Assembly: GCA_045560295.1 (NCBI GenBank)
Contig: JBJKZL010000004.1
Span: 132,566-196,565 of the forward strand
Source of the DNA: Fidelibacterota bacterium
GTDB taxonomy: Bacteria; Fidelibacterota; Marinisomatia; Marinisomatales; Marinisomataceae
Length of the DNA stretch: 64,000 bases
Direction: 5' to 3'
Of this stretch, positions 92 to 29,414 are shown piece after piece. Made by a program: the position numbers and the translations under genes. Numbering within the stretch: the first letter of the stretch is position 1; each line of letters begins with the position of its first letter. The notes beneath the pieces are model-generated. The model searched no databases. It had not been told where the DNA came from and saw nothing but the letters and a program-made list of their open reading frames with translations.

Positions 92-1138
92 ATGAAAAAC
101 CTACTATTTTATTCCTTGTTCATTTGTATGTCATATCTTTTGTTGTGGCCTGTTCCAATAAATCCAGTATCTTGGGATTCTCCTGATCCACCATCAATGA
201 CAGGCATATATGAAAAAAATGATTATTTAAAAAATATAGAAATCTTTTGGGAAAACGATGGACATTCTGGACCAGAAGACATCGCAATTCATGACGATAA
301 TTTATATGTTGGATACCATGATGGGCTTATTATGCGCTCTGATGGGGAGTTTTACAATACTAATGGCCGTCCTCTTGGAATGGTATTTGATGCTGGCAAT
401 AATCTAATCGTTGCAGATGCGATTCAAGGACTGATATCAATTAATCAAAACGGTATTGCTAGCACCCTTTCAATAAAATCTGATTCAGACGGCATTCCGC
501 TCAGTTTTGCAGATGATTTAGATATTGCAACCGATGGGAAAATTTACTTTTCTGACGCTTCAGATAAATTTGGATACGGGGAAGACCAAATTGAAGCTAT
601 GGAACATACACCAAACGGAAGATTGTTAGTCTATGACCCAAAAACTAAACTGACGACCACACTTCTCGATAAATTATATTTTGCAAATGGGGTTGCTGTA
701 GGCCCCGACGATGCTTTCGTTTTATTTAATGAAACGTTTATGTATAGAATACAAAAATATTGGCTTAAAGGACCAAAAGCCGGCACATCAGAAATCATTA
801 TGGACAACCTACCTGGTTTTCCAGATAATATCTCTTCTAATGGAAAAGGAATTTATTGGGTGGCACTTTTTACAGTAAGAAATGACTTTATTGACCAAAC
901 AGCAGATAAGCCTTTTCTTAGGAGTCTAGCCTTGAGATTACCAAAATTTTTACAGCCCAAGCCAGAATCTTATGCCTTTGCTTTGGGAATTGATGCTAAC
1001 GGCAATGTTTTACATAACCTTCAGTATGATGCTAGCGATGCCTATGCTCCCATAACAAGCGTTAAGGAGTATGATGACCATTTATATTTTGGAAGCCTCA
1101 CTCATGAAGGTTGGGGTAAAATAGAAGTTCCAAAATGA
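92..1138 (+). CDS. Strictosidine synthase-like / APMAP-like beta-propeller protein with N-terminal membrane anchor
   Basis: The internal ATG at 92 gives the hydrophobic N-terminus MKNLLFYSLFICMSYLLLWP. Motifs GPEDIA, GRPLGMVFD, DDLDIATDGKIYFSDAS, GRLLVYDP, FANGVAV and PGFPDNI are typical of the strictosidine synthase family. The ORF-track start at 29 looks like an upstream extension. Confidence 0.7.
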   Translation: MKNLLFYSLFICMSYLLLWPVPINPVSWDSPDPPSMTGIYEKNDYLKNIEIFWENDGHSGPEDIAIHDDNLYVGYHDGLIMRSDGEFYNTNGRPLGMVFDAGNNLIVADAIQGLISINQNGIASTLSIKSDSDGIPLSFADDLDIATDGKIYFSDASDKFGYGEDQIEAMEHTPNGRLLVYDPKTKLTTTLLDKLYFANGVAVGPDDAFVLFNETFMYRIQKYWLKGPKAGTSEIIMDNLPGFPDNISSNGKGIYWVALFTVRNDFIDQTADKPFLRSLALRLPKFLQPKPESYAFALGIDANGNVLHNLQYDASDAYAPITSVKEYDDHLYFGSLTHEGWGKIEVPK

Positions 1139-2103: not shown

Positions 2104-3387
2104 TTACTTTATAAAGGAAAAGCTTTTACCAAACTTTGGATTTTTCAAGCTTTCTTCAATTCTTAGAAGTTGATTGTATTTACTTGTTCGATCTGAACGA
2201 CAAACAGAGCCAGTTTTTATCTGACCACCACCCATTGCTACTGCAAGGTCAGCAATAAAGGTGTCTTCCGTCTCTCCAGATCTGTGAGATATAATAAAAT
2301 CACAATTATTTTTTTTTGCTATATTAATAGCTTCAATTGTCTCTGAAACTGTTCCAATTTGGTTCAGTTTTATTAAAATGCTATTAATAGAATTTTGAGC
2401 AATTGCTTTCTCTAATTTAGCCGGGTTGGTTACAGTTAAGTCATCACCAACAACTTGAACTTTGTTACCCAATGCTTGATTCATTTTTGTCCATCCAGAC
2501 CAATCATTTTCATCTAAACCATCTTCTATAGATACAATAGGATATTTAGTGATAAGATTATCATAAAACTGTATCATACCATCAACATCTAAAACTTTAT
2601 TATCAATTTTTAGATGATATTCTCCTTGGTTATAAAAGCTTGATGCTGCAACATCTAAAGCTAAGTAAACATCTGTTCCAGCCCTGTAGTTTGATTTCTC
2701 TATTGCATTTAATAAAAGCTCTATGGCATGTTCATTTGATTTAAGTCTCGGAGCAAATCCACCCTCATCACCTACTGTTGTCGACAAGCCCAAATTCTTT
2801 AACTCGCCTTTGAGTGTATGAAATATTTCTGAACCCATTCTAAGCGATTCTGAAAAAGATATTGCTCCAGAAGGGAATAACATAATTTCTTGAATATCAG
2901 AACCTCTGTCAGCATGCATACCCCCATTCAAAACATTGATCATCGGTACAGGCATTTGAATGCTGTTTTTATTTAAATACATATAAAGTGGTTGTTGATA
3001 AAACTTTGCGGACGCAACAGCACATGCCATTGATATTCCCAGCATTGCGTTTGCACCATAATTGCTTTTATTAGGCGTACCATCAATTTCCATTAATAAG
3101 GCATCTATTGCTGTTTGATCATCAGATCTTTTGTCAATAAGCTCAGGTTGAAAAACATTGATTACATTTTTGATGGCAGTAGAAACTTCTTTTCCATGAA
3201 AGCGAGTATTATCTAAATCCCTTAATTCAAGCGCCTCAAATTCTCCTGTTGATGCACCTGAAGGAACAGCTGCTTTACCAATAATCCCACTCGCATGTAC
3301 CTCTACCTCTATCGTCGGATAACCCCTAGAATCTAGTATTTGTCTAGCGTGTACTTTTTCTATAATAGGATAATTATTATTTCCCAT
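2104..3387 (-). CDS. eno: Enolase (phosphopyruvate hydratase)
   Basis: 427 aa with clear full-length enolase similarity (ARQILDSRGYPTIEVEV, SGASTGEFEALELRD, IKLNQIGTVSETIEAI, SHRSGETEDTFIADLAV). Confidence 0.97.
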   Translation of the reverse strand: MGNNNYPIIEKVHARQILDSRGYPTIEVEVHASGIIGKAAVPSGASTGEFEALELRDLDNTRFHGKEVSTAIKNVINVFQPELIDKRSDDQTAIDALLMEIDGTPNKSNYGANAMLGISMACAVASAKFYQQPLYMYLNKNSIQMPVPMINVLNGGMHADRGSDIQEIMLFPSGAISFSESLRMGSEIFHTLKGELKNLGLSTTVGDEGGFAPRLKSNEHAIELLLNAIEKSNYRAGTDVYLALDVAASSFYNQGEYHLKIDNKVLDVDGMIQFYDNLITKYPIVSIEDGLDENDWSGWTKMNQALGNKVQVVGDDLTVTNPAKLEKAIAQNSINSILIKLNQIGTVSETIEAINIAKKNNCDFIISHRSGETEDTFIADLAVAMGGGQIKTGSVCRSDRTSKYNQLLRIEESLKNPKFGKSFSFIK

Positions 3388-3495
3388 ATCTTAAGTTAGT
3401 TCTTATTGCGTTTATATGACACTTTTCAATAACAATTCTAATGAATTATTGATTTATTATGTAAATAAAATTTTTTTACTTACTTAATAAAAATC

Positions 3496-3524
3496 TTGAT
3501 TCATCGGCAAAAAGCGACTATAAT
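3496..3524 (+). promoter_or_regulatory. Sigma-70-like promoter (TTGATT-N17-TATAAT) for the leader and small-protein locus
   Basis: -35 ttgatt at 3496-3501, an exact 17-nt spacer, and a consensus -10 tataat at 3519-3524. The predicted TSS is near 3531. Confidence 0.45.
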
Positions 3525-3534
3525 TATAAAAAAG

Positions 3535-3636
3535 ATGAATAAAGACAACTTTTTTAAAAGATTTAATCATATTGACATGATTAATAATGGGGGTAAAAAG
3601 TCACTCGTAAAGTGTGAAGTTTTACCTTTTTTTTAA
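3535..3636 (+). other. Candidate 33-codon leader ORF (MNKDNFFKRFNHIDMINNGGKKSLVKCEVLPFF) inside a ~105-nt leader transcript
   Basis: ATG at 3535, about 4 nt after the predicted TSS, with no SD. The stop TAA at 3634-3636 lies at the end of the terminator U-tract, so the ORF reads through both arms of the terminator hairpin. Coding status is unproven. Confidence 0.25.
3592..3634 (+). terminator. Intrinsic terminator / attenuator in the 5' leader of the small-protein genes
   Basis: ggtaaaa (3592-3598) pairs with ttttacc (3620-3626), with inner tcac/gtga pairing. A T8 run follows at 3627-3634. It lies about 20 nt upstream of the SD of the 3667 gene. Confidence 0.7.
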
Positions 3637-3666
3637 CTAGTTAATAACTAATCAAGGAGGAATAAC

Positions 3667-3873
3667 ATGGCTTCATGGGATTCAATGATAACGAGTACAT
3701 TAAGTGGTTTAACAGGTGTAGTAAAAGCTGCAGTAATCTTCTTCATATTCGCAAATATACTATATCCAACAGGAATGGACCCACTTGGTGGAATTATGAA
3801 TTTAGTTGATACATTTCTAAACGGTGGCGTAACAGGATTGCTAGTATTAGTAGTCTTTTTGTCATGGTTATAA
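3667..3873 (+). CDS. Small glycine-rich two-helix membrane protein (68 aa), paralog 1, unknown family
   Basis: Strong SD aaggagg at 3654-3660, 6 nt before the ATG. Two hydrophobic segments. About 32% ungapped identity (20/63 by hand alignment) to the product of 3960-4172. Confidence 0.75.
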   Translation: MASWDSMITSTLSGLTGVVKAAVIFFIFANILYPTGMDPLGGIMNLVDTFLNGGVTGLLVLVVFLSWL

Positions 3874-3898
3874 GATAGGCTGTATTAAACTAACAAGA

Positions 3899-3932
3899 AT
3901 AAGAGCTTCATACACTAGTATGAAGCTCTTAT
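3899..3932 (+). terminator. 14-bp perfect stem-loop between the two paralog genes (terminator or processing/stability element)
   Basis: ataagagcttcata (3899-3912) pairs with tatgaagctcttat (3919-3932) around a 6-nt loop. There is no clean U-tract after it, only ...aaattaaaag. Confidence 0.5.
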
Positions 3933-3959
3933 AAATTAAAAGTTTGGAGGACAAACATA

Positions 3960-4172
3960 ATGAAAAATGCTATGAAAATGATCAACGATACTTTAGGCCA
4001 GTTAACAGGCTTATTGACACAGGTGGTTGTTGCTGGTACTATTATTGGTATTTTGTATGATGACGTATTTGGTGTTATCGCAGGTATTGGTAATGCAGTA
4101 GCTATGATTGGTGACGGCGGCATTGCTGGCTTAGTTGCAGTAATGATTGTTGCAGGGTGGATGAAAAAATAA
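3960..4172 (+). CDS. Small glycine-rich two-helix membrane protein (70 aa), paralog 2, unknown family
   Basis: SD ggagg at 3946-3950. It shares collinear motifs with paralog 1 (MI..TL..LTG, ILY, GI.N.V, GG..GL, W near the C-terminus). Confidence 0.75.
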   Translation: MKNAMKMINDTLGQLTGLLTQVVVAGTIIGILYDDVFGVIAGIGNAVAMIGDGGIAGLVAVMIVAGWMKK

Positions 4173-4209
4173 TTTTTTTAATAAACTCTACGTTGACTTA
4201 AAATAAAAA

Positions 4210-4232
4210 GGGCTCAAATTTTGAGCCCTTTT
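4210..4232 (+). terminator. Intrinsic terminator after the small-protein locus
   Basis: gggctca (4210-4216) pairs with tgagccc (4222-4228) around a 5-nt loop, followed by tttt at 4229-4232. An A-run upstream gives it bidirectional potential. Confidence 0.7.
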
Positions 4233-4259
4233 ACGTTATATTTGTAATAATTTTATACT

Positions 4260-5429
4260 ATGAAATCAAAAATTCTTTTACGCCCTATTATATCAATTTT
4301 CTTTTTGCTATCACTCCTTATAGCAAATAATACACAAACTATTACTATTCTAGACAGTAATAACATTTTAGGTGAAGCTGATATTTTCAAGAAAGACCAA
4401 TACTATCTGTCGATCAACGACTTTGGAGAAATTATTGATAACGGTTCATTTATAAATCAAAAGACAGAAAAAATTGTTATTTACATAGACAATCTTAAAA
4501 TCAAGTTTTCATACAACATTCCATTTGTTGTAATTGATGAGAATATTTATCAAATGGAAAGCAAAGTTGTAAAAAAAGATGAAGAATATTATATGCCCAT
4601 AGATAGTTTTTTTAAGATTTTATCTATTCACGGCTCTAACAAGCATTCTATAGACTATAATAAAATGTCTATCACATTTAAAACAGAAAATAAAAAATCA
4701 AAAATACCTGTTGTGTCACCAGATTTAAAAGCGGAAAAGAATAAATGGAAGTTTAACACAATTATAATTGACCCAGGGCACGGGGGTAAAGACCCAGGAG
4801 CTATTGGATATCGAGGAACCAGAGAAAAGGATATTGCCTTAGATGTAGCCAAAAGACTTGAAAGAAAGATATCTAAAAACATGAAGGTAAAAACAATCCT
4901 AACCAGAGATGAAGATATTTTTCTAAAATTAGGAGAAAGAACAAGGTTCGCTAACGAAAACAACGGAGATCTTTTTATTAGTATTCATGCAAATGCAGCA
5001 GAAGACAGAAGAGCAAGTGGATTTGAAACATTTTTGATTGGTCCTAACAGAAATCAAGCAGCAGTAAGGGTAGCTGCCAGAGAAAACGCAGTATTAGAAC
5101 TTGAAGGTGGTGCCACTAAAAAACTAACAGATGAAGCTCTTATTACGGCGACAATTGCACAGGCAGGTTTTGCAAGCTTTAGTGAGCAGTTTGCGGCGTT
5201 AGTCCAAGAAGAAATAGGAAAGAGGATTCAAAGTAAAAATAGAGGCGTCAAACAAGCTGGTTTTTATGTATTAATGGGCGCTTCTATGCCTAATGTATTA
5301 ATTGAGCTCGGGTTTATATCAAATCCATCTGAAGAAAAAAAATTAAAAAGTCCAAAGTATAGAGATACGTTAGCAACATCTATTTATAGAGCAATAGAGA
5401 AATATGAAAAAACTTTAGACGCTAATTGA
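4260..5429 (+). CDS. N-acetylmuramoyl-L-alanine amidase (Amidase_3 family) with N-terminal signal/anchor
   Basis: C-terminal domain motifs IIIDPGHGGKDPGAIG, EKDIALDVAKRL and GDLFISIHANA. Hydrophobic N-terminus. Confidence 0.85.
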   Translation: MKSKILLRPIISIFFLLSLLIANNTQTITILDSNNILGEADIFKKDQYYLSINDFGEIIDNGSFINQKTEKIVIYIDNLKIKFSYNIPFVVIDENIYQMESKVVKKDEEYYMPIDSFFKILSIHGSNKHSIDYNKMSITFKTENKKSKIPVVSPDLKAEKNKWKFNTIIIDPGHGGKDPGAIGYRGTREKDIALDVAKRLERKISKNMKVKTILTRDEDIFLKLGERTRFANENNGDLFISIHANAAEDRRASGFETFLIGPNRNQAAVRVAARENAVLELEGGATKKLTDEALITATIAQAGFASFSEQFAALVQEEIGKRIQSKNRGVKQAGFYVLMGASMPNVLIELGFISNPSEEKKLKSPKYRDTLATSIYRAIEKYEKTLDAN

Positions 5430-5430
5430 A

Positions 5431-6675
5431 ATGATTGATCCTACCTTAGAATTTTTATATGGACTCCATAATCGTGGAATTAAACTTGGACTCAAGAATA
5501 TAAATAGTTTTTTAAAAATCTGTGGTGACCCACATAAAAAAATTAAAACAATTCATTTAGCTGGAACTAATGGCAAGGGATCTACATCATCTATTATTGC
5601 AAAAATTTTACAAAATAATGGTTATAAAGTAGGATTATATACTTCTCCACATTTAATAAATTTTAATGAAAGAATTAGAATTGATGGTATCCCTATATCT
5701 GATGAAAAGATTATAAAATTTATTGAAAGGCACAAGCAAACATTAATTGATAGCTCGATTACTTTTTTTGAGGCAACTACAGCTTTAGCGTTTGAACATT
5801 TTGCAGATCAAAAAGTAGATATTGCTATAATTGAAACAGGCTTAGGTGGAAGATTAGATTCAACTAACGTATTGACTCCTATTCAGACAATTATTACTGA
5901 AATACACTATGACCATACACACATTTTAGGCGAATCAATTGAAGAAATTACTACTGAAAAGTGCGGAATTTTTAAAGATAAAACGCCATCCATAACAGTG
6001 AATTCAGATTCTCGAGCTATAAAAACCATCAAAGAACAAGCTTTGCTAAAAAATGTTGAAGTGTCATTTATTAATAAACAAAATATTGTTGTTAAAAGTC
6101 AGCAACAAAAATCTATCAGTTTTTCCTACCAAGATCAGGAATTTACTTTACCTCAAGCAGGGTCTTATCAGGCGCAGAATGCTATAATGGCCATTAAGAC
6201 ATGTCAAAACAACTTCAATCATTTAACCAATGAAAATATTCAGCTAGCTCTCGATCAGTGGTATTGGCCTGCAAGAATGCAGATTATGAAAGACAATTTC
6301 TTCTATGATGTAGCTCACAATAGAAATGGCGTTGAAATTTTGACCAAAGATTTAAAAGAAATTTATAATAAGAAACCATTAGGAGTGGTGGTCTTAAAAA
6401 ATGATAAAATTAACCCTGAGTTGGTAGAAATGTTTTCTCAATCATTCGAGAAACTTATTATTTCAACTATTCCCTCAAAAGATATATTAAATAAAGAAGA
6501 AATAATGAAAAATCCATTGCTTAAAAACTTTGAATTTGTTGAAAACCTTAACGAAGCACTTACAGATATTAATAATATAGAGTATGCGGGTGGTAAAGTT
6601 GTTTTTGGTAGTCATTATATAGCGAAAGAGGTATATAATTTTTTTGATTTTTCCTTTGACAATGGTATCATATGA
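5431..6675 (+). CDS. folC: Folylpolyglutamate synthase / dihydrofolate synthase
   Basis: 414 aa of the Mur-ligase type with P-loop HLAGTNGKGST and ETGLGGRLDSTN. Confidence 0.85.
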   Translation: MIDPTLEFLYGLHNRGIKLGLKNINSFLKICGDPHKKIKTIHLAGTNGKGSTSSIIAKILQNNGYKVGLYTSPHLINFNERIRIDGIPISDEKIIKFIERHKQTLIDSSITFFEATTALAFEHFADQKVDIAIIETGLGGRLDSTNVLTPIQTIITEIHYDHTHILGESIEEITTEKCGIFKDKTPSITVNSDSRAIKTIKEQALLKNVEVSFINKQNIVVKSQQQKSISFSYQDQEFTLPQAGSYQAQNAIMAIKTCQNNFNHLTNENIQLALDQWYWPARMQIMKDNFFYDVAHNRNGVEILTKDLKEIYNKKPLGVVVLKNDKINPELVEMFSQSFEKLIISTIPSKDILNKEEIMKNPLLKNFEFVENLNEALTDINNIEYAGGKVVFGSHYIAKEVYNFFDFSFDNGII

Positions 6676-28717: not shown

Positions 28718-28745
28718 TGTTATTAATCCTTTTAATAAAAATTAG

Positions 28746-28817
28746 TACCGACGGAAGGACTCGAACCTACAACCAAGGGCTTAAAAGGCCCCTGCTCTAC
28801 CATTGAGCTACGTCGGC
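28746..28817 (-). tRNA. tRNA-Lys (anticodon UUU)
   Basis: The reverse complement folds as a cloverleaf: GCCGACG-TA-GCTC-AATGGTA-GAGC-A-GGGGC-CTTTTAA-GCCCT-TGGTT-GTAGG-TTCGAGT-CCTTC-CGTCGGT-A. The anticodon loop CTTTTAA gives UUU. CCA is not encoded. There is one U-U mismatch in the T stem and a G1-U72 wobble pair. Confidence 0.9.
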
Positions 28818-29061: not shown

Positions 29062-29406
29062 GGGGGCGACCGGTTTCGACATTTTAGAAAGAAATTTTAA
29101 GTTGCATGTAGAGCTTAGTAACTCTTAAAACTTCTAAACTGTATTAAGTGCCGATTATGGCCAAATGGCTGTAGCTTAGTTGCTATAACCCATCATCAGT
29201 AGGCGTTTCTCATCGCTGTCTGAATGATGTCATAAAAATGAGATAGCTTATTTTTTTGCTTCGATTAAATAAGTGACCACTTAGAAGATAGTCTTATATT
29301 CGTCTGTTCTTGAACCTGTATAAGGCGAAACTTGATCGAGTAACTAAACATGTAGATATTTATCTTTTCTCTATTATGGACGGGAGTTCGAATCTCCCCG
29401 CCTCCA
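29062..29406 (+). ncRNA. ssrA: tmRNA (SsrA), one-piece
   Basis: The 5' end GGGGGCGACCGGTTTCGAC and the 3' end GGACGGGAGTTCGAATCTCCCCGCCTCCA form a tRNA-Ala-like domain with a G3-U70 pair. The candidate tag frame is 29150-29179: GCC GAT TAT GGC CAA ATG GCT GTA GCT TAG = ADYGQMAVA. It is preceded by TAA+GT, like the E. coli TAG+TC context. The 3' CCA is not encoded; the sequence continues CAC. Confidence 0.9.
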
Positions 29407-29414
29407 CACATATA

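Follow-up and report, generated by a model that had tools for sequence, protein, structure and literature searches.

The 64,000-nt stretch of Marinimicrobia (SAR406) DNA analysed here, which we call the window, contains two adjacent genes for small hydrophobic proteins, A and B. In front of gene A lies a leader in which a predicted promoter is followed by a short open reading frame (sORF), a small hairpin (P1) that lies inside this frame, and an intrinsic terminator (Table 1). A preliminary description of this DNA, made from the sequence of the window, had named these leader features, and all of them are present. The combination of promoter, sORF, P1 and terminator recurs in about 35 Marinimicrobia species-level genomes and across 68 distinguishable leader variants. 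We consider the leader features to be beyond chance mainly because they are conserved.

Table 1. Features of the leader and of the genes behind it, in window coordinates.
Feature	Position	Strand	Remarks
A-rich tract, UP-element-like	3488–3495	+	AAAA at 3490–3493 invariant in 30 species; putative function
−35 hexamer	3496–3501	+	TTGATT; invariant in 30 species; listed by promoter scan
−10 hexamer	3519–3524	+	TATAAT (TATTAT in clade 3); kept at 17–18 nt spacing
Predicted transcription start	3530–3533	+	Placed from the position of the −10
sORF, 33 codons	3535–3636	+	MNKDNFFKRFNHIDMINNGGKKSLVKCEVLPFF; ATG 3535, TAA 3634–3636
U-run/A-run inside the sORF	3550–3559	+	TTTTTTAAAA; T positions nearly invariant across clades
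P1 hairpin	3563–3584	+	8 bp; DNA TTAATCAT/ATTGAC/ATGATTAA, RNA UUAAUCAU/AUUGAC/AUGAUUAA
Terminator stem-loop	3592–3626	+	Outer 7 bp, internal loop, inner 4–6 bp; from folding and covariation
U-tract	3627–3634	+	T8; T6–T9 in all clade 1–3 variants
Translation-initiation block of gene A	3645–3684	+	SD AAGGAGG 3654–3660, ATG 3667, first six codons
Gene A	3667–3873	+	68-aa hydrophobic protein, two predicted membrane helices (from reading the sequence); putatively the first regulated gene
Gene B	3960–4172	+	70-aa paralogue of A (32% identity, E = 3e-08); second gene

Gene B adjoins gene A in every locus examined, and neither protein matches a family in Pfam, NCBIfam or PHROGs. The two genes have by far the strongest ribosome-binding sites in the window. 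The initiation block of gene A carries 0 substitutions in 30 or more species. Its codons 1–6 show no synonymous change; conserved residues later in the gene vary synonymously, and the corresponding region (TIR) of gene B is not invariant. The gene A block gave 0 matches when searched for in viral contigs. Taken together, the promoter, the SD and the invariant 40-nt initiation region suggest, as far as sequence can indicate, that A and B would be expressed very strongly and under tight control. More distant relatives of gene B (L178–L181) have a different leader from which the terminator is absent, and they contribute nothing to the covariation analysis described below.

The proposed promoter, TTGATT-N17-TATAAT, agrees with the consensus at 10 of 12 positions. 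The promoter scan that lists it proves nothing by itself, because such matches are not enriched in this AT-rich DNA (17 matches, where 19.6 are expected). The proposal is borne out by the phylogenetic footprint, in which both hexamers are conserved across 30 species while the sequence of the spacer changes. Neither the promoter scan nor the clade alignment revealed a sigma-70-like −10 between the terminator and the SD of gene A, as anticipated by the earlier view that the downstream genes need read-through. Two candidate second promoters, one starting from TTGACA at the P1 loop and the other 3' of the terminator, were rejected on inspection, having no acceptable −10 in any clade.

The leader, first described as about 105 nt long, does end in an intrinsic terminator with a stable hairpin and a run of eight T. 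Its outer stem pairs 3592–3598 with 3620–3626 and its inner helix 3601–3604 with 3614–3617, with GG/CC at the base. The T-tract is separated from the SD of gene A by 19 nt, which places the terminator about 30 nt 5' of the start codon. The predicted folding energy, −14 kcal/mol (z = −3.7), was matched by 0 of 200 shuffles; across the terminator-bearing variants it ranges from −7.9 to −16.3 kcal/mol. The orthologous leaders show compensatory changes: in an alignment that was fitted to the structure model, 95.7% of cells are paired, and seven pairs, in 71 cells, have changed on both sides. These values were reached by 0 of 500 shuffles, and slid controls pair at 31–56%. The structure can be assigned to the + strand because of its G.U pairs, and the minus strand has no U-tract at this site. 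A palindrome 3' of the terminator, TTAACTAGTTAA, was considered as an operator and rejected: it occurs once in the window, and clade 3 lacks it.

The T-tract is missing in one clade only (L021, L022 and L049), and this clade also has a degenerate P1. In other words, the parts of the leader decay together. L049 has lost the sORF as well. In L021 and L022 the frame of the sORF relative to P1 differs, and a TGA-to-TGG change in P1 leaves the stem intact through a wobble pair.

The sORF has no SD, and its ATG lies roughly 2–5 nt from the predicted 5' end of the RNA, so that it is not a true 5'-terminal AUG. A start without an SD is normal here: about half of the long ORFs in the window also lack one. 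The preliminary description had a 33-codon frame run through the terminator, and a frame that enters or crosses the terminator is indeed kept in all three terminator-bearing clades. Specifically, 63 of the 65 terminator-bearing variants retain an ATG-started frame that reaches into the terminator and covers its outer 5' arm. In two variants the stop codon just precedes the loop; in the others it lies within the loop or the 3' arm, within the U-tract, or no more than 15 nt past the stem. The ATG does not change in clades 1 and 2, though its flanks vary; in clade 3 it lies 7 nt farther from the −10 and in the same frame relative to P1. In L063 and L116, 1-nt homopolymer indels, which are either real or sequencing errors, truncate the frame before or in P1.

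Shuffled flanks recreate the sORF geometry in 2.5–6% of trials per clade. Statistical support for the sORF is modest, with P of 0.03–0.06 per clade and clades that are only partly independent. At least 64 substitution events in the frame have produced 0 stop codons, where about 3.7 would be expected (P about 0.05 and 0.27). The codon-pattern check gave no protein-coding signal: variable sites fall evenly on all three codon positions, there is no 3-periodicity, and conservation of the peptide is limited to the RNA-constrained P1. The peptides of the different clades have only H-I-D-M-I in common, a stretch encoded by P1, and no regulatory codon run or repeated codon class is visible in them. 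Searches of Pfam, NCBIfam and PHROGs gave no match to the sORF peptide, and both the 33-aa peptide of the window and the 26-aa peptide of clade 2 are absent from a collection of 15 billion proteins. The U-run/A-run upstream of P1 might, speculatively, be a pause site or pair weakly with the A-run of the terminator.

P1 (−5 kcal/mol, z = −2.4) was first described with a stem of 6 bp. The hairpin stands, with a slightly longer stem of 8 bp, and both it and the sORF recur when orthologous loci are checked. The core 18-mer of P1 is invariant in clades 1–3, and only two loop variants occur. Three changes have been accepted in the stem, all of them A-to-G and all giving G.U wobbles, which argues that P1 acts as + strand RNA. 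P1 can be translated in the sORF frame only. The invariance of both stem and loop goes beyond what a simple pause hairpin would require and hints at specific recognition.

The P1 motif was rejected as a regulon motif: the window holds a single copy, and matches elsewhere that are not the leader are unrelated. Among 120 metagenome matches, 69 are the leader itself and 51 are unrelated sequences, most of which seem to be coding, such as ENHIDMI in apparent Usp-type genes; the six matches in viral contigs are all unrelated sequences in other contexts. Long-range pairing of the leader or P1 with the invariant TIR was also rejected, as the best duplex (−6.5 kcal/mol) is worse than the shuffle mean. 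The suggestion that P1 takes part in alternative folding found no support. We found no conserved antiterminator, the only candidates being weak, low-information pairings of the U-run and A-run that differ between clades and carry no covariation information.

Looking across the computed evidence, support comes from the conservation of the promoter, P1, the terminator and the open frame, from covariation in the terminator, from constraint on P1 at the RNA level, from the lack of an alternative promoter and from the joint loss of parts. We are confident that the locus is a lineage-specific transcription attenuator in a SAR406 leader. The Rfam scan that the preliminary description had called for matched the leader to no described family. 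At gathering thresholds a scan of the whole window left the leader without a match, and in Rfam 15 at E up to 10 the region 3300–4300 gave only sub-threshold matches to sRNA families, scoring 17.8–20.6 bits where the gathering scores are 48–64. The literature on leaders and small RNAs of Marinimicrobia/SAR406 yielded no relevant description.

How might such an attenuator work? Most likely, read-through would be set by translation of the near-leaderless sORF across the terminator, in the manner of the pyrBI leader. We give a probability of about 0.45 to this reading as a whole, that is, to a two-gene operon whose 5' leader holds a transcription attenuator acting in cis, with read-through that would be driven by sORF translation. 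A strong sigma-70-type promoter would fire near 3531, and the AUG at 3535 would emerge in the RNA almost at once, opening the short frame to translation. The polymerase would pass P1 and meet the terminator, which by default would release a transcript of about 100 nt. If a ribosome translates the sORF close behind the RNA polymerase, it may instead occupy the 5' arm of the terminator and thus allow read-through into A and B. P1 probably helps to couple ribosome and polymerase, for example as a pause hairpin, or is otherwise recognised. The physiological signal may be general translation capacity or coupling, since no regulatory codon run is visible.

The closest known parallel is the pyrBI (and pyrE) leader of E. 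coli, where ribosomes suppress an intrinsic terminator. There too, a short leader ORF runs across the terminator hairpin, which a closely following ribosome would keep from forming; U-rich stretches lie 5' of the terminator, and neither an antiterminator helix nor regulatory codon runs are required. Unlike pyrBI, the SAR406 leader has no sequence similarity to that system and no link to pyrimidine genes, its SD-less sORF begins 2–5 nt from the predicted 5' end, and an invariant hairpin lies inside the ORF. Ribosomes near a terminator suppress termination. In E. coli, within the first 100 nt of an ORF, translation barely affects a terminator unless RNA polymerase pauses, and it lowered the efficiency of a terminator placed 30 nt into an ORF by only about 10% (PMC4824070). 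Extra coupling would thus be needed for the sORF model, given so small an effect; in the pyrBI leader this coupling is supplied by pause sites (PMC4824070).

The order of promoter, short leader ORF, intrinsic terminator and structural genes is also that of the trp, his, leu, thr and pheA attenuators, whose pause hairpin may be analogous to P1. In contrast to these, the SAR406 leader has no cognate codon run and no conserved 2:3 antiterminator that we could find, its ORF does not stop before the terminator, the genes behind it are not biosynthetic, and it has no match in Rfam. A third comparison is offered by the mycobacterial polycysteine sORFs, in which runs of Cys codons reportedly sense cysteine and which are not known to work through an intrinsic terminator. 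In the SAR406 leader the intrinsic terminator is clear, codon bias is absent, and the ORF is probably preceded by 2–5 nt of leader. The leaderless sORF attenuators of mycobacteria (bioRxiv 10.1101/834739) resemble the present case in being unannotated SD-less sORFs, at or near the 5' end, that regulate a downstream operon in cis. Taken as a whole, the SAR406 leader looks like a previously undescribed on/off leader of a well-known type, the transcription attenuator.

The sequence invariance of P1 invites a different reading. The stem-loop and its flanks may be the recognition site of a trans-acting RNA-binding protein, a small ligand or an ion, which we regard as doubtful but worth keeping in view. 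In one version, which we think unlikely, a trans-acting factor, most plausibly an RNA-binding protein, would read P1 and alter pausing or termination, and the open frame would be incidental or secondary. Arguing for this, P1 has kept both its stem and its loop while the terminator stems diverged freely, a pattern typical of sequence-specific recognition; the only changes in its stem preserve pairing through G.U, and its decay is confined to the clade that has lost the T-tract. The protein-dependent attenuators, such as the L10(L12)4 site of B. subtilis rplJL, PyrR, TRAP and the LicT/SacY RAT, likewise have a conserved, sequence-specific RNA element before an intrinsic terminator. Counter to this, P1 does not overlap the terminator as the elements in those leaders do, so that a bound factor could not compete directly with the hairpin. 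No gene for a candidate binder is linked to the locus, and P1 is confined to one leader, with no regulon among the metagenome matches (69 of 120 being the leader itself). Furthermore, overlapping constraints from the open sORF frame and from pairing might also freeze P1. On inspection P1 is unlike the PyrR, TRAP and RAT motifs.

Alternatively, the terminator may respond to no signal. A constitutive, partial terminator could set the level of expression or the ratio of short to long RNA, with P1 and the 5' region serving mRNA stability or processing. The lack of regulatory codons and of any conserved alternative structure in our searches fits this picture, as do a stem that is AU-rich and of moderate strength (−7.9 to −16.3 kcal/mol) and the existence of a related clade that does without the T-tract. 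We nevertheless judge it improbable: tuning alone hardly accounts for a terminator placed between a consensus-like promoter and a perfect SD with an invariant TIR, and it leaves both the maintained ATG and open frame and the nucleotide invariance of P1 unexplained.

There is also a small chance that the main product is the terminated RNA itself, about 100 nt long, as a 5'-UTR-derived or independent sRNA acting in trans, in which P1 or its loop is the functional part. It would have a strong promoter of its own and a rho-independent terminator, its internal sequence is highly conserved, and the weak Rfam matches are all to sRNA families, though far below threshold. Since no other promoter serves genes A and B, the leader must in any case also act in cis. 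The conserved part is a paired stem rather than a single-stranded seed, the element is always fixed to gene A, we can suggest no target, and complementarity to the neighbouring TIR is not significant.

A very small riboswitch, in which P1 and its flanks (the U/A-run and the AAUAAUGGGGG linker) would bind a metabolite or ion and shift formation of the terminator, seems very improbable. The preliminary description had listed a riboswitch among its candidates, and the layout, a conserved promoter-proximal element right before an intrinsic terminator, is the classic one; the downstream membrane proteins could be related to transport. Against this stand the lack of any matching Rfam family even at E up to 10 and the nature of the only conserved strong structure, a single helix that is invariant in sequence rather than covarying, the reverse of what aptamers usually show. 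The clades differ in the 5' flank, neither a conserved antiterminator nor a pseudoknot partner for the P1 loop was found (partly by inspection), and a maintained ORF spans the region.

Finally, it is scarcely credible that P1 is a DNA operator at which a transcription factor blocks elongation or initiation, even though AATCAT-N6-ATGATT is a perfect inverted repeat of invariant sequence with further AATCA-like half-sites within the −35 hexamer and immediately 5' of the SD, because the three one-sided A-to-G changes break the DNA symmetry and keep RNA pairing by G.U, the site lies downstream of the promoter at +35 to +55, its distance to the other half-sites varies between clades, and no regulator gene is linked to the locus.

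SAR406 is among the most abundant uncultured bacterial groups of the ocean, and to our knowledge the phylum is uncultured as a whole. We found in the literature no described cis-regulatory RNA from Marinimicrobia/SAR406. At about 170 nt, the leader provides a clean and testable case, and it points to the pair of orphan small membrane proteins that appear to be under its control. If the proposed translation of the sORF across the terminator is correct, the leader would be a coupling attenuator of the pyrBI type, near-leaderless and found outside both the Proteobacteria and the Actinobacteria. If P1 is instead a binding site, it would be one half of a new RNA–regulator pair, and if it is indeed P1 that is recognised, the leader would represent a new class of regulatory RNA controlling an orphan pair of membrane proteins.

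We consider a transcription attenuator the best-supported reading of the leader that precedes gene A, which encodes a small hydrophobic protein of 68 aa. On our analysis, read-through would depend on a ribosome translating a 33-codon leader frame (the sORF) into the terminator. The leader occupies the 279-nt gap between gene A and the divergently transcribed enolase gene in a Marinimicrobia (SAR406, Candidatus Neomarinimicrobiota/Fidelibacterota) genome. All elements named in a preliminary description were found in place; the small hairpin P1 inside the leader, described there as 6 bp (3565-3582), is present but actually has 8 bp. The terminator folds at -14 kcal/mol (z = -3.7), equalled by 0 of 200 shuffles, and P1 at -5 kcal/mol (z = -2.4).

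Features of the leader and its neighbours (window coordinates, except the last row, which uses those of the loci named)
Feature	Position	Strand	Remark
Enolase	2104-3387	minus	divergent neighbour
Promoter -35, TTGATT	3496-3501	+	17 nt to -10
Promoter -10, TATAAT	3519-3524	+	
sORF, 33 codons, MNKDNFFKRFNHIDMINNGGKKSLVKCEVLPFF	ATG 3535 to TAA 3634-3636	+	
P1 hairpin, UUAAUCAU/AUUGAC/AUGAUUAA	3563-3584	+	8 bp
Terminator, outer stem	3592-3598 with 3620-3626	+	
Terminator, inner stem	3601-3604 with 3614-3617	+	
T8 tract	3627-3634	+	
SD of gene A, AAGGAGG	3654-3660	+	
Gene A, 68-aa hydrophobic protein	3667-3873	+	directly after leader
Gene B, 70-aa paralogue of A	3960-4172	+	32% identity to A
Replaced-terminator region	L021 2920-2981; L022 1107-1168; L049 about 360-500		

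Homologous loci (L-numbers) were collected by exact-protein look-ups (ten near-identical loci), a profile scan of GTDB species representatives (30 loci), further look-ups that added L041-L051, and a metagenome scan with the P1 18-mer, which returned 120 loci, 69 of them with this leader. Pooling all sources gave 68 distinct leader sequences. We distinguish clade 1 (the window's own), clade 2 (such as L024-L039), clade 3 (such as L017-L023 and L043-L048) and a fourth small clade (L021, L022 and L049-L051).

In all clade 1-3 variants the terminator folds as a hairpin in two tiers, with energies from -7.9 to -16.3 kcal/mol, and T6-T9 follows directly. Using a covariance model built from 13 gap-free sequences, we aligned 51 leaders; standard pairs fill 95.7% of terminator cells against 87.5% in shuffles, in an alignment that favours structure because it was fitted to the model, and model-independent folds of each sequence agree. 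The compensatory change that had been proposed as a check on orthologous leaders is present: both sides change in seven pairs and 71 cells (for example GGU...ACC, GGC...GCC and GGGGAC...GUCUC), the observed values are reached by 0 of 500 shuffles, and pairing falls to 31-56% when partners are slid by 1-3 columns. Given that G.U pairs are numerous and that a U-tract lies on one side only, the structure belongs to the + strand.

Across a 30-species alignment the -35 hexamer is unchanged; clade 3 has TATTAT as its -10 and the others have TATAAT. The spacer varies in sequence at a constant 17-18 nt, and an A-tract lies 5' of the -35. As a phylogenetic footprint, the region fits a predicted sigma-70-type promoter well; single-sequence support is weak, because promoter-like matches are not enriched in the AT-rich window (17 against 19.6 expected). 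No acceptable -10 hexamer lies between terminator and SD in any clade, so transcription of genes A and B has to read through the terminator, as had been claimed for downstream expression. Possibly the terminator is simply partial and unregulated, or the RNA released at the terminator, about 100 nt long, acts in trans. The sequence AATCA (TGATT on the opposite strand) has four copies that alternate in orientation, namely in the -35 hexamer (3496-3501), in both P1 arms (3565-3570 and 3577-3582) and just 5' of the SD (3649-3654), and RNAalifold pairs the first copy with the last. This is probably coincidence; clade 3 does not keep the spacing.

The 18-nt core of P1, AAUCAUAUUGACAUGAUU, is identical in every clade 1-3 species that was found without selection on P1, save for two changes in the loop (AUUGGC in L019, AUUGAU in L047). 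Stem substitutions number just three, all A-to-G: the L017 group has one, in its 5' arm, and L021/L022 have two, in the 3' arm. Each turns an A-U pair into G.U; of all single substitutions possible in the stem, pairing would survive only about one in six. Read on the opposite strand they give C.A mismatches, and they break the DNA palindrome, so P1 is constrained as + strand RNA. Such invariance, set against a freely covarying terminator, suggests sequence-specific recognition or several overlapping constraints, and it is possible that a factor binding P1 controls the leader. The two weakest alternatives are a DNA operator at P1, which sits poorly with one-sided stem changes that keep RNA pairing through G.U, and a minimal riboswitch: the leader has just one helix, invariant, and Rfam places it in no described RNA family, in keeping with the earlier remark that it fits no riboswitch consensus. 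P1 was also rejected as a general motif; the window holds one copy, and the further hits from viral and metagenome collections are unrelated sequence, a large part of which seems to be coding.

P1 is open in just one frame, AAU CAU AUU GAC AUG AUU, with UGA in both others. In clades 1 and 2 this frame is opened by an ATG 10 nt past the -10, invariant amid variable neighbouring bases; clade 3 leaders are 2 nt shorter, and an ATG 17 nt past the -10 again opens the P1-readable frame. Of 65 distinct leaders with both P1 and terminator, 63 have a frame that stays open until it has entered the terminator; the stop falls shortly ahead of the loop in 2 variants and otherwise within the loop or 3' arm, within the U-tract, or at most 15 nt beyond the stem. 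The exceptions, L063 and L116, have 1-nt homopolymer length changes (A3 to A2; T6 to T7); both are metagenome variants, and either sequencing error or genuine loss of the frame may lie behind the change. When the variable flanks were shuffled around a fixed P1 in representatives of each clade, such an ORF arose in 2.5-5.8% of trials, and at least 64 substitution events created 0 stops where about 3.7 would be expected (P about 0.05 and 0.27).

Two features speak against a coding role of the peptide as such: residues beyond P1 vary from clade to clade, and third codon positions within P1 are invariant. The codon-pattern check suggested earlier came out negative, variable sites being even across codon positions. 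If the frame is used, translation itself would count, not the peptide product. The sORF start has no SD, which is no argument against translation, because about half of window ORFs of at least 150 aa lack an SD-like motif; the full AAGGAGG of gene A occurs in none. SD-independent initiation seems common in this genome, judging from these ORFs, and ORFs without an SD are typical of the FCB group.

By layout, the leader and pyrBI, its closest known counterpart, both belong to the leader-ORF/terminator attenuator class, and here, as in the pyrBI leader, a ribosome whose translation of the sORF carries it into the terminator would permit read-through. In E. coli, ribosomes stopping beside a terminator suppress it, and a terminator in an ORF's first 100 nt is barely affected without RNA polymerase pausing of the kind seen at pyrBI (PMC4824070). 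With the terminator here at nt 58-100 of the sORF, some means of coupling would be required, for which P1 or the conserved U-run at 3550-3555 would be the obvious candidate. The sensed signal would possibly be general translation capacity or coupling; sORF variants contain no regulatory codon run. As to the alternative folding once suggested for the small hairpin, no conserved antiterminator was found across leaders. The near-leaderless start resembles the mycobacterial sORF attenuators (bioRxiv 10.1101/834739).

Members of the fourth clade, a coastal or estuarine sub-clade, have no U-tract; a short hairpin has taken the place of the terminator, with UAAAAG or AUAAAU after it, and a hairpin (GGGUUAUAAAACCC and variants) has been gained at the predicted 5' end. 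In L021/L022 the frame is shifted relative to P1, which reads UUA AUC AUG UUG ACG UGG, the would-be UGA now being UGG and the stem retained via a wobble pair; in L049-L051, a degenerate P1 goes with an sORF that ends after 8 codons. Promoter and initiation region are still intact. Their joint loss suggests that P1, sORF and terminator function as one unit, and this leader looks like a natural 'attenuator-off' version.

The initiation region of gene A (3645-3684, 40 nt) is invariant in all species examined. It comprises pre-SD sequence, SD, ATG and six opening codons (ATG GCT TCA TGG GAT TCA) with zero synonymous changes, whereas conserved residues farther into the gene do vary synonymously; its length is about that of a 30S initiation footprint. 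The gene B counterpart is not invariant. Extreme selection on translation initiation and a binding site are candidate causes.

Genes A and B bear the window's strongest SD sequences; judged by sequence, each protein apparently has two membrane helices and Gly-rich motifs. A 15-bp, GC-rich hairpin between them (3899-3932), kept in all clades with apparent compensatory changes by eye, is followed by A-rich sequence and no U-tract; it may act in processing or stability or block 3' exonucleases, fixing the A:B ratio. The perfect 12-bp hairpin 3' of gene B (4206-4232; AAAAGGGCTCAAATTTTGAGCCCTTTT), between A-runs and T-runs, looks like a bidirectional intrinsic terminator and draws several Rfam sRNA matches, all sub-threshold. 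Gene A is followed by gene B, an Amidase_3 gene, folC and rho. Between amidase gene and rho, the near-identical strains L002 and L008 (4939-5427) have an unannotated 162-aa ORF, the window has folC (5431-6675), and other strains have a shorter Mur_ligase_M call, which indicates strain-level variation or assembly differences. Elsewhere lie a tRNA-Lys(UUU) gene (28745-28817, minus strand) and a tmRNA gene (29062-29409, plus strand) with tag peptide ADYGQMAVA.

Proteins identical or near-identical to A are annotated in MAGs and single-cell genomes of this phylum only. Searches of Pfam, NCBIfam and PHROG gave no family match for A or B, and with just 39 matching cluster representatives among 1.84 billion proteins they form an orphan family confined to the lineage. 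Distant gene-B relatives (L178-L181, whose gene-A homologue starts MKNVA) have an unrelated leader without terminator, so the element too is confined to this lineage. That leader carries its own conserved hairpin, CUUACGAGC...GCUGUAAG, and in L179 the A/B homologues sit among other small genes, a differing genomic context. We found no literature on cis-regulatory leaders in the Marinimicrobia/SAR406 phylum, and P1, if it proves a specific recognition site, would make this leader more interesting.
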